From positions 4,712,001 to 4,776,000 of the forward strand of contig NC_089433.1 of NCBI RefSeq assembly GCF_026210795.1: a DNA stretch of 64,000 nt. Reading direction: 5' to 3'. The notes beneath the pieces are model-generated. The model made no database searches, was not told where the DNA came from, and was given only the letters and a program-made list of their open reading frames with translations. This DNA is from Rhizophagus irregularis. Taxonomy: Eukaryota. Position numbers and translations under genes: made by a program. Numbering within the stretch: the stretch's first letter is position 1; the number at the start of each line of letters is the position of its first letter. Of this stretch, positions 6,806 to 55,679 are shown one piece after another.

Positions 6806-8371
6806 ATGGAAAACAAGCCAACCATTAACTCATTAATGACACACAAACCACACCTGAAAATGTTTAAAAATTGTACTGAATGTAATCGAATAATTTTCAG
6901 CGAAATTAATGCCAACTGCTATCAATGTTGTAAATTAAGAAGTATTCCGTTAAGCGGAAATAAAGTTGTTGATGACTTTATAAGAAGATATACATTAGTT
7001 AACGGTGAAGTGTGTATAGAATTTGTTCCTTTCGATAAATTCAAAGATGTAAAATATATTGGTGAAGGGGGATTTAGTAGAGTATATAGTGCCACTTGGA
7101 AAGAAGGTCCGATAGCTAATTGGAATGACGAAAAACAAAAATATGCTCGTCATGGTAAAATAACAGTTGCACTTAAGGAACTTAATGAATCTAAAAACAT
7201 AAGTCCTAAGGAATTAAATGAGGTACGGTATTTTACACCAATTCAAATTATAAAATCTCGTTGCAAATCATTAGTATATTAACAAAAATAAATATTATTT
7301 TAGCTCAAGATATATTTCAATATTACTTTAAATTGGAAAAGTGATAATTTCAATTATATTAATATCAACACGTATTATGGGATTACCCAGAATCCCATCA
7401 CTCAAAATTTTATGATCGTCATGAAATATTTTGAATCAGGGGATTTAGCGCATTGTTTATTTAATAAATTTTTTAATTTTAGCTGGTGTAATAAGTTAAA
7501 TGTTTTAAAGGATATTGCATCTGGATTGAAAGATATGCACAGCACAAATATTATCCATAAGGATTTTCATAGTGGAAATATTTTTATTACGGGGAATTTT
7601 TGCATGAATGCATTTATCGCTGATTTTGGGATTAGTAAATCTGCATTAGATGATGATGATGAGATTTATGGAATTATTCCCTATGTTGCTCCAGAAATAT
7701 TTCTAAGTCATAAATATACTAAAGCGTCGGACATATATAGCTTTGGTATGATCATGTGGGAGGTAATGACAGGTAGAAAGCCTTTTTGGGATCGAAATCA
7801 TGACGCAGAACTTATTGTTGAAATATGTATAATTGGAGCTCGACCTCCAATTGTTACGGATGCGCCTGAGGGCTATATTGAATTAATGAAAGAATGTTGG
7901 CATCCTAATCCAAATGAAAGGCCGACGGCTACTGAGTTAAAAGGAAAACTTTGGAATATTCTGGACGAAGAACAAGATCCCTTTTCAACTCCAACTAAAA
8001 TTACGAAGACACCGGATATTGGACCTGTAACAGCAAATAATCCATGCGCTATATATAAGAGTAGAGCTTTAAGCGCAATGATAAAATCTATAGAATTTAC
8101 TAAATGTTTAAAAATTCAAGGTAATTTTAATATTTTATTAATAATTTAACTGTTAAATTTCATTACTATCTCAGAGAAACTAAATTCTCTCTTTTTTTTA
8201 TTTAGATTATTTTACAAAAGAACTTGAATTTGATATTGACATTGATAATAATCATAGTAATTGTAAGTAATGAATATACTTGATTAATAACACAATTAAA
8301 TTCGTATATTAATAATTTATTTATAATTTATAGATTATATTACCAGAGAAATTGATTTTGATATTTATTAA
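6806..8371 (+). CDS. TKL-family protein kinase; exons 6806-7222, 7304-8120, 8206-8262, 8334-8371 (about 442 aa)
   Basis: Has GEGGFSRVY, VALKEL, IIHKDFHSGNI, DFG, APE and DIYSFG motifs. Canonical GT-AG introns keep the frame. Two short C-terminal exons encode YFTKELEFDI / YITREIDFDI repeats. The true start may lie further upstream. Confidence 0.9.
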
Positions 8372-19745: not shown

Positions 19746-22700
19746 TTAGTCTGTTTTAATATCTAAATAATTAAATAAATAAAATTAGTTTCATGTAAAT
19801 AATTTGCAAATTAAATTATTTTATATCATACTATATTACATACCTAATGACTTCAAATTAACCATACATTCACTCAAATCTTCACTTACAAGCATTTCAT
19901 TCACTTTTATACTAGCTTGTGAATCTTCACTTTCAGGAATTCCATTCAATTTTTTGCTAGTATTTTCATCTGTTTTAATATTTAAATAATTAAATAAATA
20001 AAATTAATTTCACAAAAATCACTTGCAAGATTAATTTTATACATACTAAATTACTTACCTAACAATTTCAAATCTTTAATCATATAATCATTCAAATCTT
20101 CACTTACCAGCATTTCACTTTCAAGAATTTCATTCAATTTTTTACTAGTAAAATTAAGCAAGCGACTTGTATAACAAGCCTGTGGATGAGATTCAGTAAC
20201 AAGATTATTATGTTCAATTGGTGCATTTATAAATTCCATAGCATTGCGTTTTAATACTTCATCAATATCTTTAATTTCCTTGCCATAAGGAAGATAAATC
20301 CATTTTTTAATAATTTCTAAAACTTCCTCAGAAGATGGCCTTTTTAATGGATCTTCATCCCAACATTTTTTCATTAAATCTACATAACATTGTGGAGTAT
20401 TTTCAATAATTTCAGGACGTTCACCTTTACAAATACTTAAACTAAGTTGAATATCATGTGCTCTATTGTTAAATGGTGGTATTCCAGATGTAAATTCCCA
20501 CATAATCATAGAAAAACTGTATATATCACTAGCTGAAGTATAAGATTTGCCTCTTAAAACTTCAGGTGCCATAAATGGTACAACACCAAAAATCTTATAC
20601 TCTTTTAAAAATGATTTTACAGGTTGACATAATCCTAAATCACTAACATAAATTTTATATGCTCTATTCTTTTCATCTTTTTCATAATAATTATGATTTA
20701 AAATATTGCCATCATGAAAATCACAATGAATAAGATTTTGCTTATGTATCACATTAAGTCCAGAAATAATTCCATACAACATATATAATTTTTGATCCCA
20801 AGCACTTTCAACTATTCTTGTTAAGTTTTCTCTTAAATTACCTTTGTTTGCATAATACATTACTGCCATATATTTTAAAGTATCTGGATTTTTTGTAAAT
20901 CCATAAAAATAAATAATTTCAGATGAATCTAAACAACTTTCATGACATTCCCACTATAAAAAATAATAATATATTAATAAAAGTAGATTATAATTTAAAT
21001 TAAAAAAATAAAATAATATACTATCATACTTCATTTAAAAATTCATTCAAATTTTCATTTAAATTATTATGACATTTAAGAATTACTTCTTTATCATTCT
21101 TTAACCAAATAGCTTTGTATATGGTACCAAATCCTCCTTTATTAAGATATTCAACATTTTTAAATTTATTATAAGGAATCCATTTTAATCCTTTTTCCAA
21201 AATAAATTTATCCATAATTGTATTTTCACTTTTTCCAAATCTATAAATTTAAAGAATTAAAAATATATTAAAGTTTATAATAAAATTTACACTAAAACAC
21301 TAATGTTAAGATTAAAATTAACACTTACTCTAAAATTCAAATAGGAATTTAAGATAATATATGTCTTAGTTCTTGTATAAATATATACAATAATAAGTTA
21401 TATTTCACAACTTACCAACTAAAGTAATAGAAATTTTAAATGAAAGAATACAGTTAATAAATAAATATTATATAAAATATGTAACAATAAAAATAACAAA
21501 TAACCTACAAGCTATATTATTAAATAATTTTTAAATAAAGAATTTAGTTAGTTTAAATTATATGTAAATATTATAACAATAAGTAATAATAGAATTAAAT
21601 AAATAACTTACGATCTAAAAGAAATTACAAAATAATTTTTTAAATAAAGAATTTGATTTAATAGTTTAAATTATATGTAAATATTATAACAATAAGTAAT
21701 AATAGAATTAAATAAATAACTTACCATCTAAAAGAAATTACAAAATAATTTTTTAAATAAAGAATTTAGTTAGTTTAAATTATATGTAAATATTATAACA
21801 ATAAGTAATAATAGAATTAAATAAATAACTTACGAGCTATATTATTTTAAATAAAGAATTTAGTTAGTTTAAATTATATGTAAATATTATAACAATAAGT
21901 AATAATAGAATTAAATAAATAACTTACGAGCTATATTATTTTAAATAAAGAATTTAGTTAGTTTAAATTATATGTAAATATTATAACAATAAGTAATAAT
22001 AGAATTAAATGAATAACTTACCATCTAAAAGAAATTACAAAATAATTTTTTAAATAAAGAATTTAGTTTAATAGTTTAAATTATATGTAAATATTATAAT
22101 AATAAGTAATAATAGAATTAAATAAATAACTTATAACTTACAATCTATTGAATAAAGAATTTAGTTAGTTTAAACTATATGTAAATATTATAACAATAAG
22201 TAATAATAGAATTAAATAAATAACTTACGATCTAAAAGAAATTACAAAATAATTTTTTAAATAAAGAATTTAGTTTAATAGTTTAAATTATATGTAAATA
22301 TTATAACAATAAGTAATAATAGAATTAAATAAATAACTTACCATCTAAAAGAAATTACAAAATAATTTTTTAAATAAAGAATTTAGTTTAATAGTTTAAA
22401 TTATATGTAAATATTATAATAATAAGTAATAATAGAATTAAATAAATAACTTATAACTTACAATCTATTGAATAAAGAATTTAGTTAGTTTAAACTATAT
22501 GTAAATATTATAACAATAAGTAATAATAGAATTAAATAAATAACTTACAAGCTATATTATTTAAATAATTTTTTAAATAAAGAATTTAGTTAGTTTAAAT
22601 TATATGTAAATATTATAACAATAAGTAATAATAGAATTAAATAAATAACTTACGATCTAAAAGAAATTACAAAATAATTTTTTAAATAAAGAATTTAGTT

Positions 22701-25020
22701 TAATAGTTTAAATTATATGTAAATATTATAACAATAAGTAATAATAGAATTAAATAAATAACTTACGATCTAAAAGAAATTACAAAATAATTTTTTAAAT
22801 AAAGAATTTAGTTTAATAGTTTAAATTATATGTAAATATTATAACAATAAGTAATAATAGAATTAAATAAATAACTTACGATCTAAAAGAAATTACAAAA
22901 TAATTTTTTAAATAAAGAATTTAGTTTAACAGTTTAAATTATATGTAAATATTATAACAATAAGTAATAATAGAATTAAATAAATAACTTACGATCTAAA
23001 AGAAATTACAAAATAATTTTTTAAATAAAGAATTTAGTTAGTTTAAATTATATGTAAATATTATAACAATAAGTAATAATAGAATTAAATAAATAACTTA
23101 CGATCTAAAAGAAATTACAAAATAATTTTTTAAATAAAGAATTTAGTTTAATAGTTTAAATTATATGTAAATATTATAACGATAAGTAATAATAGAATTA
23201 AATAAATAACTTACCATCTAAAAGAAATTACAAAATAATTTTTTAAATAAAGAATTTAGTTTAATAGTTTAAATTATATGTAAATATTATAATAATAAGT
23301 AATAATAGAATTAAATAAATAACTTATAACTTACAATCTATTGAATAAAGAATTTAGTTAGTTTAAACTATATGTAAATATTATAACAATAAGTAATAAT
23401 AGAATTAAATAAATAACTTACAAGCTATATTATTTAAATAATTTTTTAAATAAAGAATTTAATTAGTTTAAATTATATGTAAATATTATAACAATAAGTA
23501 ATAATAGAATTAAATAAATAACTTACCAACTAAAAGAAATTACAAAATAATTTTTTAAATAAAGAATTTAGTAAGTTTAAATTATATGTAAATATTATAA
23601 CAATAAGTAATAATAGAATTAAATAAATAACTTACGAGCTATATTATTTAAATAATTTTTTAAATAAAGAATTTAATTAGTTTAAATTATATGTAAATAT
23701 TATAACAATAAGTAATAATAGAATTAAATAAATAACTTACGATCTAAAAGAAATTACAAAATAATTTTTAAATAAAGAATTTAGTTAGTTTAATTTTACA
23801 GTATGTAAATCTTATAACAATAAGTAATAATAGAATTAAATAAATAACTTACGAGCTATATTATTTTAAATAAAGAATTTAGTTAGTTTAAATTTTACAG
23901 TATGTAAATATTATAACAATAAGTAATAATAGAATTAAATAAATAACTTACGATCTAAAAGAAATTACAAAATAATTTTTTAAATAAAGAATTTAGTTAG
24001 TTTAATTTTACAGTATGTAAATCTTATAACAATAAGTAATAATAGAATTAAATAAATAACTTACGAGCTATATTATTTTAAATAAAGAATTTAGTTAGTT
24101 TAAATTTTACAGTATGTAAATCTTATAACAATAAGTAATAATAGAATTAAATAAATAACTTACACCCTATATTATTTAAATAATTTTTTAAATAAAGAAT
24201 TTAGTTAGTTTAAATTATATGTAAATATTATAACAATAAGTAATAATAGAATTGAATAAATAACTTACGAACTATATTATTTAAATAATTTTTTAAATAA
24301 AGAATTTAGTTAGCTTAAATTGTATAACAATAGAAATATAGGCATCATATAACTTACACCCTGAATTATTATTAATTTTTTTTTTTATTAGTTAGATATA
24401 AATATAATAAGAAAGGTATTTGCTATAAATTGAATATATTACTTACAATCTATTTATTTAAATTAAGAATATAATTAATTAAATTATATTAAATATTGAT
24501 AAATAAATATAATAAATTAATATTCTTAAGTATTATAACTTACTAGCTGTAATATAATTAATTAGTTGTTATTTGAATATTATGTAAAATAAATAAAGTA
24601 AAAAACTATTAATTTAAACAACTGATAACTTACAAACTATAGTATTAAATGAATTATTTAGTCACATAGGATATAATAAAAATAATAAGTAATTTTATTA
24701 TTATTTAATTATAAGATAACCTATTAACTTACGAGCTAAATTATTTAATATAATTTTTATATAATGCAGTTAGTTTGTATATTATATATAGGTTTATTTA
24801 CAGATAAGTATTCAAATTATTTGCAATAAAAATTTAATATTTCAGATACCTTCAAATTCTTCAGAGCCATTTTTATTTTCTTCAGAGCCATTTTTTTTAT
24901 TAATACTACCGGAAACTAGTTTTATCATATTACCAATTTGTTAAAAATTTCAAAATTCTTATTGTATTAAATGTTCATACTATATATACGATTTTTACCT
25001 TTACCAATACATTGACCCAT
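19746..25020 (-). CDS. TKL kinase with N-terminal MGQCIGK motif and a micro-exon-encoded segment; exons 25020-24999, 24915-24850, 33 x 3-nt micro-exons (24735 to 21416), 1-nt exon 21329, 21240-21030, 20953-20059, 19969-19844, 19762-19746 (478 aa if all included)
   Basis: The kinase motifs GGFGTIYKA, VILK, IHCDFHDGNIL, DLG, APE and DIYSF are intact. Every junction is GT-AG and the exon lengths sum to 1437 nt with no internal stop. The kinase part is high confidence; the micro-exon N-terminus is inferred. Confidence 0.75.
21241..24849 (-). repeat. Tandem array of about 87-120-bp units, each one intron plus a 3-nt exon; near-identical core at about 21500-24310, diverged units at both ends
   Basis: The plus-strand pattern ACTTAC-NNN-CT(A/G) recurs 33 times (once as ACCTAC), equal to minus-strand YAG|NNN|GTAAGT. 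Most units contain TTAGTT(AG), i.e. a minus-strand CTAAC/CTAA branch-point-like motif. Confidence 0.95.
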
Positions 25021-25484
25021 TACTATGTATTATATCAAAATTTTCTCTAACTGAAAAGAATAAAACAAATCTTTTTTTTCTTCTTTTTTTTATTATTTAT
25101 TAAACGCCTTATTAGTATGAGTAAATATGGTAATAATATTTATGCAAATTCATTATGTACATCATAAGTATTGCATATATGCACATATGACATAAATGTT
25201 GCATATCAATCAATCTTTATTGTTACGTAGCAAACATCACGAAATAGAGAAAATTGTCTCATATTAAATATATAAATTTCAAAAGTCATTAAGAAGGTCA
25301 AGTTTGGCTGCTTTGCAAGTTTACTTAGAATGACAAAGGTAGTTTTAAATATCACTATCGATTTTTTGTAAAATTGAAAAATGATCGGCACATATTCATT
25401 TTCTAGTTTTATTTTAAAAAAAAAGTTGCGGAAATATTTGGACAAAGTTACAAGTCAGTTACTAAAAACACTAAAAAATATATC

Positions 25485-35479: not shown

Positions 35480-36080
35480 GAATTCTTAACGTTTAAGAGT
35501 TTTAAAAAGGACATCTTTCACCTACTTTCTCTTCTTGATTAAAATAAAAAATATAAATATGAAAAAATTCAATTAATTTTAACTCGAATTAATCGATTGA
35601 TGTGGAAATCCAGTTTTAGAGAGAACATCTTTTCACATTTCTCGCCTACTTTCTCTCTTAACTTAAAATAAAAAAATATAAATATGAAAAATTACAATTA
35701 ATTTAACTCGTTTAATAATAGAGAATTAATCGATTGATGCAGTAATCGAACATCTTTTTCACTTACTTCTCTTCAATGTTATCCTTGACTTAAAATAAAA
35801 AATAATTAATCGATTGAGCGCTGTTGATTGGATAGGCTGTTTCTGCTGTCGGGAATTCAGTTTAAAAAGAACATTTTTTCATATTTCTCACTTACTTTCT
35901 TTCTCTCCAGTGTTAACCTTGACTTAAAATAAAAAAAAGAAGAATTAATCGATTGATGCGGGAATCCAGTTTTAAAAAGTACACATTTCTCACCTAATTT
36001 CTCTTCGGCTCTTCGACTTAAAAAAAAAAAATATAAATATGAATTAATTTTAACTCGTTTCAATAATAATTAATCGATCT
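35480..36080 (-). repeat. Degenerate tandem units of about 95-135 bp resembling duplicated intron + micro-exon modules
   Basis: About five units with minus-strand TTTTATTTTAAG acceptor, short purine-rich exon and GTAAGT/GTAGG donor; ATCAATCGATTAATT recurs. Confidence 0.65.
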
Positions 36081-36465
36081 ACAATAACCCCCTAATATAA
36101 TTAATTAATTTACCTTTAACAAATAGAAATGAATTGAAAAAATTACCATCAAATTTGGGACGTTTTTTACGTTGATAAGGAATTAACTCAATCTTTTGTA
36201 TTTCTCGATCATAGGGAACACGTTCTGGAATATAAAATAAATATAACATAACGTAAATAGGTTCGATAGCTATCATAACTTCAAGGTTTTCATCAGGATC
36301 ATTATGATCATCAGGAACATCAGGGGCATCAGGATCAGATGGTAGTTTTAATTTATCAAACAATAAACATAAGTAAAAAATATTGCGGGTAAATACAATA
36401 ATAAAAAGGGCAAATAAAAAAATATAAGCCAAATATTCTAAGTATTTAATTTCTAGAAGAACCAT
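35994..36465 (-). CDS. Small predicted membrane protein; exon 36465-36114, probably spliced to 36016-35994 (ending VEEPKRN*)
   Basis: A-rich context before the ATG, a hydrophobic segment (YLAYIFLFALFIIVF), a PD-rich linker, and an AAAG|GTAAAT donor with a downstream T-tract AAG acceptor. Confidence 0.55.
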
Positions 36466-54606: not shown

Positions 54607-55679
54607 TTATAAGAATTGATCATTTAGATCTATTTCATGTGATTATTTGGACGCCATTGTCCATTTTACATGTGGTTATTTGAACATCAATTTCGTTTAA
54701 TATTTGAGCATCAGGACATCAATTTTACTCAGAAAAAAAAAAAGAAAAGCATCAGGACATTTAATATTTGGACATTAATATCCATTTAATATTTGGACAT
54801 CAATGTCCATTAATATAATAGTTATTATTTAATATAATAGTTATTTGAATATCACACGAAAAAAAAGAAAAAAAATTTATTAACTGTACATATTTACTAA
54901 AATATATGAGATTTAATAAATATTTAATAAGCGACCAGAAAAATTTAATTAGCTAATAAAGGAAAACAGACTCGGAAAAATCAAAAGATTTGAAAAAAAA
55001 AGTGACCGCAAATTAATAGGCAGTAAGTAGTAGTTATTAAGTACATTTGAAAATTGAAAACCTTAAAAACGAATATTTTCGTCATTTCACGACGAAGAAA
55101 TAATTATAACCTTACTGTTGCGATTCCAAGATTGGGAATAATTGAAATCATAAGAAATTTCTTTTAACTTTATCGGATTAAAATTCAATAAATCAAACGG
55201 AAATTCTTTAAAAAATTTTTTTTTTTCTTTTTTGAACGAACGAAATTTCTATTTCTTTGCGTATTCTGATATCCGATTGAATGGACTTTTAATTTTGTTC
55301 AGATCTTCTGTTATTTCTTTGCTAATTAATGTTATTTTATTTTAAATTTTGTAATCAAATAATTCTTTTGGCAGTCAACCACTTCTATGTACCATATTGT
55401 CAAACCAAAATGGGAATCATTTATTAATTATGGAAATTGGAGTTTCAGGAAACGACTTTGGGGACAATGGCATCAGATGTAATTGATTATCTTATATGTT
55501 CCAAATTCTTTTATTTACTTTTTTTTATTATTCTTTTAATTTTTATAATTAACATGAACGAATAAGATTTTTTTTTTTTAAAAAAGAATTATATTTAGGA
55601 AAGCTTTGAAGATCCTTTTAATTTTTATAATTAATATGAACGAATAATTGAAAAGCTTTGAAGATCAATTTAATTTGAT

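Follow-up and report, generated by a model that had tools for sequence, protein, structure and literature searches.

A tandem array of three-base exons upstream of the kinase domain in a Rhizophagus irregularis gene, with its first members joined in RNA

Introduction

When a tandem repeat lies directly before a protein kinase gene, is it a satellite beside the gene, or is it part of the gene? The question is raised by 3.3 kb of the minus strand in a 64,000-nucleotide stretch of Rhizophagus irregularis, an arbuscular mycorrhizal (AM) fungus (assembly GCF_026210795.1, contig NC_089433.1, positions 4,712,001 to 4,776,000). This whole stretch is called the window, and its own numbering is used throughout. 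An earlier reading of the letters of the window (the sequence-only reading) proposed that the "satellite" consists of exons in a row, each exactly three nucleotides (nt) long and set between introns, which feed a kinase, and that skipping of these micro-exons might create a hypervariable segment.

The array is real, and the public gene model does not annotate it. Reads from RNA join the first two exons of the gene and then enter the chain, so the "satellite" is indeed made of micro-exons of a kinase gene. We consider it probable that the 3.3-kb repeat is, as a whole, a tandem of 33 three-base exons with complete short introns within a gene for what we take to be a tyrosine-kinase-like (TKL) kinase; its first micro-exons are joined to exon 2 in RNA, and the entire chain, together with an exon of one nucleotide that closes it, is predicted to encode a linker.

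The array

Searched by script for the pattern AG|NNN|GTRRG, the minus strand yields 33 sites from 24735 to 21416, spaced 87 to 120 nt apart. The first micro-exon lies at 24735-24733 and the last at 21418-21416. In transcript order, the triplets are CTC TTT CTA ATT GGT TTC GGT CTC ATC CTC ATC CTC TTG CTT ATT ATG ATC ATC ATC ATC ATC CTT ATT ATG ATC ATT ATG CTC CTC ATG ATC CTT TTG. The search thus returns every triplet and both ends that the sequence-only reading had given. T is the middle base in 31 of the 33, the remaining two being GGT, and the block CTT-ATT-ATG-ATC is present twice, pointing to higher-order repeats. To Tandem Repeats Finder, the same DNA is a 94-113-nt repeat, 83-99% matching.

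Could such a row be an accident of composition? With 26% G+C, the window is AT-rich. In its 64 kb, each strand has AG-NNN-GTAAGT just once beyond the array, and a chance origin of the 33 sites is therefore excluded.

From exon 2 of the gene to its first kinase exon there are 35 introns, 84-117 nt in length, as had been proposed. Their donors are GTAAGT in 33, GTAGGT in one, and GTATCT in one (the intron that follows exon 2); their acceptors are TAG in 33 and CAG in two.

Array triplets in RNA

Are these triplets joined to anything in RNA? Here, the material is three poly(A) RNA-seq runs carrying the same species label (X22-X24), of which about one quarter each was used. Reads were placed twice, over 19800-25300 and then over 24400-25300 only. 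Placement over the whole locus is dominated by reads of paralogous kinases; in X22, 486 of 509 reads are 95-99% alike.

Two exons precede the array. Exon 1 (24999-25020) holds the start codon and 22 coding bases, begins M-G-Q-C, and ends in phase 1. It rests on the frame, on similar starts in the paralogue models P0029, P0046, and P0068, and on an RNA joint 24915->24999, carried by 14 reads (3, 9, and 2 across the three runs), that skips the 83 nt of the predicted intron 1 (24916-24998, donor GTAAAA). Exon 2 (24850-24915) is a 66-nt acidic exon rich in N, G, S, and E, likewise with a phase-1 end; it rests on the frame, on an RNA depth of 3-17 at 24891, and on paralogue reads that run in an E-E-F-E frame. 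These last reads have loose ends at 24851 and 24878 from which they go on in that acidic frame, and they come from paralogues with a longer exon (compare P0029). Paralogue reads are evidently part of the mixture, and the exon 2 frame is confirmed by them.

Beyond exon 2, six reads of run X23 depart from the genome at 24850, the last base of that exon. Intron 2 (24736-24849; 114 nt, donor GTATCT) is placed by the frame and by these reads, which pass from 24850 to micro-exon 1. The reverse complement of their 30-letter consensus is micro-exons 1-10 in genomic order, with 28 of 30 letters matching and the first 19 exact. The sequence-only reading had suggested looking in raw reads for what follows exon 2, and array-derived triplets are what is present there. 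Micro-exons 1-6 are certainly spliced behind exon 2 in poly(A) RNA, and micro-exons 7-10 very probably are. The array itself (21416-24735), with its 33 three-base exons and 32 introns of 84-117 nt, thus stands on the pattern search, the repeat finder, and the six reads with the first ten triplets.

Contigs from a further run, X1, behave like DNA, a judgment made because they cover introns. The depth of X1 over the array was rejected as an estimate of copy number; its very high values sum collapsed repeat contigs.

A separate observation concerns two 40-nt pieces of array units, at 21743-21782 and 24178-24217. In each run, 10-40 RNA reads match just these 40 nt, with unrelated flanks that are richer in G+C. 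It seems that a different, abundant transcript contains 40 nt of the array intron family.

Reading frame and predicted protein

What would the chain encode if it were spliced to its end? After the last triplet, TTG, comes an intron of 86 nt (21330-21415), and then a predicted exon of a single nucleotide, an A at 21329, in the context AG|A|GTAAGT. An intron of 88 nt (21241-21328) separates this from kinase exon 1. The two introns are placed by the frame and by the intron census. The 1-nt exon, which shifts phase 1 to phase 2, is placed by the frame, kept only when this exon is included, and by AG|N|GTAAGT equivalents in relatives. Kinase exon 1 (21030-21240) has an F-G-K-S-E-N motif, W-I-P-Y, the glycine loop, and an internal ATG that is the start of the public model. 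A 76-nt intron (20954-21029, donor GTATGA) leads to kinase exon 2 (20051-20953), which runs for 300 codons to a stop at 20053-20051.

Joining 25020-24999, 24915-24850, the 33 triplets, 21329, 21240-21030, and 20953-20051 gives 1302 nt in a single frame, with 433 codons running through 36 junctions. Omitting the 1-nt exon breaks the frame, and a stop follows soon after the array. The uninterrupted path into the kinase that the sequence-only reading described, 1-nt exon included, is therefore reproduced.

All array introns are in phase 1, with each codon split across two micro-exons, one base from the end of the first and two from the start of its successor. This, in turn, means that any number of units keeps the frame. 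The earlier claim that no junction between triplets makes a stop also stands, with none at the 32 adjacent junctions and none at the 496 that skipping could form.

By prediction, the full chain with its 1-nt exon would insert some 33 residues of low complexity between the N-terminus and the kinase domain. The predicted product would have an M-G-Q-C N-terminus, an acidic stretch, a linker of about 33 residues rich in His, Tyr, Pro, and Asp, and then the kinase domain; the row likely encodes a linker of variable length. A start of the M-G-Q-C type is typical of proteins that are myristoylated and palmitoylated. By this motif (Gly at position 2 with a nearby Cys), the N-terminus of the kinase is likely lipid-anchored.

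The open reading frame 20953-20054 on the minus strand, 300 codons, is 100% identical to the public model P0001 of R. irregularis DAOM 197198 (343 amino acids, with precomputed Pfam domains PF07714 and PF00069). That model includes neither the upstream exons, nor the array, nor the 1-nt exon. The family is large, with 1795 proteins at E <= 0.001 among 2616 candidates. Paralogue models share the M-G-Q-C or acidic N-terminus, fused in frame to the kinase (P0029, P0068, P0060).

At the other end of the gene, the stop of the public model (20053-20051) sits within a GTAAGT donor at 20058-20053, which may lead to a further 3' exon. A putative exon at 19969-19844 on the minus strand continues the kinase frame, matches the C-termini of paralogues, and ends in a similar ...L-G|GT pattern; RNA reads show a joint in the region 19838-20060. 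The public model may be short at its 3' end, and the C-terminal tail of the kinase seems to be built of repeated modules of an exon and a phase-1 intron.

Related kinase loci

Is the array a peculiarity of one gene? A profile made from 30 family members was used to collect 80 soil-metagenome contigs, mostly of 1-3 kb, that encode related kinases. The landmark in these was W-x-P-Y of kinase exon 1, present in 49 of the 80 loci, and upstream and downstream were counted from it.

Upstream of the landmark (22.5 kb in total over the 49 loci), AG-NNN-GTAAGT occurs 74 times in sense and once in antisense. Downstream (89 kb), it occurs twice in sense and once in antisense. Where at least 300 nt of upstream DNA are available, 23 of 29 loci have at least one micro-exon and 17 have at least two; the longest chains, in L046 and L053, reach 8-10. 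The scan of relatives that the sequence-only reading had called for is thus positive, and by sequence the micro-exon design is family-wide upstream of related kinases.

The relatives also close their chains as the window does. In the closest of them, equivalents of the 1-nt exon stand some 70-130 nt before the kinase exon, AG|A|GTAAGT in L001, L003, and L012, and AG|T|GTAAGT in L005. In another branch (L011, L013, L056, L009), the chain closes with a 4-nt exon, which likewise moves phase 1 to phase 2. These loci agree with the phase-1 frame and with the 1-nt exon.

Where might an exon of one base come from? Several paralogue models run from the homologous acceptor region directly into the F-G-K-S motif, and in the window the flank before the 1-nt exon translates to residues that match the paralogue models at that place. 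Most likely, then, an intron was once inserted behind the first base of the kinase exon and so created the 1-nt exon.

The triplets of the relatives are less uniform than those of the window, with a middle T in 40 of 74, and AAA, AGA, GGA, GAT, and GAA all occur. Their linker sequences are unrelated to each other and differ freely in length and composition. This suggests that the linker is tolerant, with length and composition drifting, and its sequence is probably under weak constraint.

Two further observations belong here. At L003:120-175, one array unit seems to be without donor and acceptor; about 36 nt are left, open in the phase-1 frame, possibly a decayed intron turned exon. The paralogue models P0005, P0029, P0045, P0074, and P0115 have I/L/M/G-rich segments, for which micro-exons, intron read-through, or normal exons are possible sources.

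Splice signals and intron history

If the introns of the array are copies of one another, what has been kept as the copies age? Among young units, the average likeness is 84%. For the five oldest array introns (those behind micro-exons 1-5), the cores have a similarity of 0.68, against 0.66 +/- 0.03 for shuffled sequence, and these same five retain GTAAGT, YAG, and the exact 3-nt spacing. Because the signals are kept while the cores have diverged to the shuffled level, the splice signals of the array introns are under selection. The ordinary introns of the kinase gene (n=3) have weaker donors: GTAAAA, GTATCT, and GTATGA.

Other signals are found within the introns. In 45 distinct units from relatives, AG is depleted (41 against 75 expected), and just 3 of the 41 fall in the 45 nt nearest the acceptor. 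At 21241-24849 of the window and in loci L005-L069, the likely branch region, ..AATTTAAACT-(C)AACTAA.., precedes the acceptor by about 24-50 nt, and almost no AG falls between the two. The sequence-only reading had placed a CTAAC-type branch point in every unit. This fails for 11 of 37 introns, which have CTAAA rather than CTAAC and no match to YTRAY in their last 60 nt.

Across all loci, the array introns can be aligned as a single family, in which blocks at the donor, around the AATTTAAACT-CAACTAA branch region, and near the acceptor are conserved. This family is seen only in arrays 5' of this kinase family, in the window and in the kinase-encoding metagenome loci. Between L005 and the window, the array units are 86-88% identical, whereas the kinase exon is 79.7% identical. 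Such an excess is unusual for introns and suggests either constraint or exchange between arrays.

A mechanism can be proposed from these features. Each intron of 84-117 nt would be recognized separately, by intron definition, through near-perfect signals: a GTAAGT donor, a branch site resembling ACTAAC, and a stretch poor in AG ahead of the acceptor. Neighboring introns would not be engaged at once; they would be removed in turn, because a 3' splice site and the next donor are just 3 nt apart. Each removal would leave one triplet in the message. The length of the array, in turn, would change by unequal duplication of units made of an intron and 3 nt, and the 1-nt exon at its end would mark the place where an intron was inserted into the kinase exon.

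Alternative explanations

Several observations weigh against a chain that is spliced to its end and translated. It is reached by six reads in one of the three runs, for the first 30 letters only, and agreement among those six is only 0.69. Both mismatches of the consensus (letters 20-21) fall in micro-exon 7, where the consensus is a hybrid. Most placed reads are 95-99% alike, which means that paralogues or another isolate contribute. The public model P0001 begins at the internal ATG (M-D-K-F) inside kinase exon 1. In the chains of relatives, the 49 adjacent junctions hold no stop in phase 1 and ten in phase 2, but the zero is not significant alone, as shuffling triplets within chains gives no stops in 20% of trials (P = 0.20); further, phase 0 is also open in relatives, without a stop in 67 triplets.

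How far do these points support other explanations? The simplest of these, a plain intronic or intergenic satellite that merely resembles introns and whose triplets never enter mature mRNA, would account for the period that the repeat finder reports and for the likeness of young units. It is hardly credible when RNA reads have triplets joined to exon 2, when splice signals are retained in units otherwise diverged to background, and when arrays occupy the equivalent gene position in diverged relatives. The openness of phase 0 leads to another thought. In that phase, all 33 triplets would be hydrophobic or glycine codons (L, I, M, F, G), given the middle T in 31 and the GGT in the others, and the row would make a small membrane peptide from an ATG in exon 2, or a membrane-spanning segment; the I/L/M/G-rich stretches at this place in P0005, P0045, P0074, and P0115 would agree with this. 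That phase, however, is out of frame with acidic exon 2 and with the kinase, and meets a stop 18 codons past the array. A middle T is expected in any case as the third codon position of the phase-1 reading in an AT-rich genome, the triplets of relatives are not hydrophobic as a rule (many are polar), and the I/L/M/G-rich models are unconfirmed against their DNA. We regard a phase-0 product as very improbable. The internal start of P0001, which many paralogue models share, would be explained if the spliced chain were part of a long leader, with the kinase made from the internal ATG and the upstream frame serving as an upstream open reading frame or as a splicing-dependent brake on expression. 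Here, too, the frame argues otherwise: it is open from the upstream ATG to the end of the kinase, P0029, P0068, and P0060 carry the M-G-Q-C or acidic N-terminus in frame with the kinase, and the 1-nt or 4-nt last exon, a matter of phase bookkeeping required only by a coding frame, is conserved in relatives. A leader strikes us as quite improbable.

There remains the suggestion of the sequence-only reading that the array generates diversity. Under it, each transcript would use a different subset of the 33 micro-exons, placing many H/Y/P/D-rich loops on a signaling kinase, for example for recognition of non-self or of ligands. The stop-free junctions of the window, the single phase common to all introns, and the disagreement among the six reads, with its hybrid at micro-exon 7, are what such a device might give, and the dozens of 3-bp mini-exons of a NACHT-ANK family in Tuber melanosporum are reported, in papers that cite the original work, to be alternatively spliced (PMC4986451, PMC3689799, PMC9815663). 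Yet the consensus of the reads keeps the genomic order of the first ten micro-exons, and the disagreement cannot be told from that which near-identical paralogue reads would cause. The absence of stops follows from descent from few founder units, beginning CT, TT, AT, or GG. Among the 87 skipping junctions possible in relatives, 8 would introduce a stop, and the family is therefore not built for free skipping. The segment, moreover, is an N-terminal linker with no recognizable binding domain. So far, then, a hypervariable repertoire made by skipping is not borne out, and we think it unlikely. A linker encoded by the chain as it stands in the genome is the account that we prefer.

Other features of the window

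Elsewhere on the minus strand, at 35500-36200, homologous introns form another tandem row, and each of them ends ...attttaag. Between them are exon-like pieces of about 12-27 nt, rich in K and E, with GTAAGT, GTGAGA, or GTAGG donors behind them. The row looks like a further gene made of copies of an intron and a small exon.

The plus strand carries two kinase genes from the same superfamily that are more distant (34-45% identical), at 1858-2984 and 6932-8092. On that strand, AG-NNN-GTAAGT is absent near both; its sole plus-strand match in the window is at 55018.

Relation to known systems

How new is such an array? Two systems of general background resemble it in part. In recursive splicing, ratchet points (AG|GTAAGT) divide long introns of Drosophila and vertebrates and leave nothing in the mRNA. 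Like these, the array has a 3' splice site directly before a strong regenerated 5' splice site, and stepwise removal is implied; unlike them, it retains three bases per step, as the reads show, and its steps are short introns of about 100 nt. In Schistosoma, the micro-exon genes (MEGs) have exons of 6-36 nt and encode secreted proteins. There, too, rows of tiny symmetric exons keep the frame and skipping can vary the protein, whereas here the exons have 3 nt and the protein is a cytoplasmic kinase.

The closest precedent is fungal. The "nank" (NACHT-ANK) NLR family of Tuber melanosporum is reported to contain dozens of alternatively spliced 3-bp mini-exons (Iotti et al. 2012, Fungal Biol 116:261, by way of citations in PMC4986451, PMC3689799, PMC9815663, and PMC10197012). 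As those citing papers present it, the likeness is twofold. Both are expanded fungal gene families with tens of consecutive three-base exons (here 33, between complete introns), and in both, micro-exons are found in mature mRNA (here the first ten, in six reads with 28 of 30 letters). The differences are in lineage (Glomeromycotina against Ascomycota), in host gene (a TKL kinase with PF07714 and PF00069, not a NACHT-ANK NLR), and in place (an N-terminal linker here, a C-terminal recognition domain in Tuber). Alternative splicing is reported for Tuber; for the window array there is the read agreement of 0.69, for which paralogue reads are an equally good cause. The window array further has codons split in phase 1 and a closing 1-nt exon, features to be set beside Tuber only as far as the citing papers describe it.

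Single-nucleotide exons are reported from Arabidopsis (PMC4674806) and from Fusarium CYP621A (PMC12940212). As there, the frame requires a lone base flanked by an acceptor AG and a donor GT; unlike those, the predicted 1-nt exon here stands at the end of a row of 3-nt exons, and four related loci conserve it. Two reported phenomena, intron gain by tandem duplication (PMC4974935) and fungal introner-like elements (PMC4457414), share with the array many near-identical introns, new ones arising when a segment with splice signals is copied. Here, however, what is copied is an entire intron together with one codon, in tandem, at one gene position of one family.

The sequence-only reading knew of no description of such an array in these fungi. 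Among the matches listed in a literature search outside subscription journals and bioRxiv supplements, there is no paper on micro-exon arrays in Rhizophagus, Glomeromycota, or arbuscular mycorrhizal fungi, and a report of an R. irregularis assembly with Nanopore RNA (PMC10234402) contains no passage dealing with satellites, tandem repeats, or protein kinases. For a different fungus and gene family there is a description, that of the Tuber mini-exons. The window array is an addition to a rare, already known kind.

Significance

Thirty-three consecutive 3-nt exons and a 1-nt exon, with reads that show use of at least the first ten, make an extreme natural test of how the spliceosome finds exons too short to be bound alone. 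By this example, perfect donors, strong branch sites, and AG-poor introns would seem to suffice under intron definition. It is also a case of intron gain by the tandem copying of units made of an intron and a codon.

It is tempting, of course, to go further. In AM fungi, an N-terminal intron of a large kinase family may have become an expandable cassette of one-codon exons, and the choice among these may give each nucleus or hypha variable kinase linkers, for signaling or for telling self from non-self, in parallel to the mini-exons of truffle NLR genes. We consider this distinctly unlikely as a whole. For the family itself, the models of other members may omit arrays too, as related soil-metagenome loci carry them. 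The length of the array likely varies between isolates, which would make it a marker and a possible source of functional variation.

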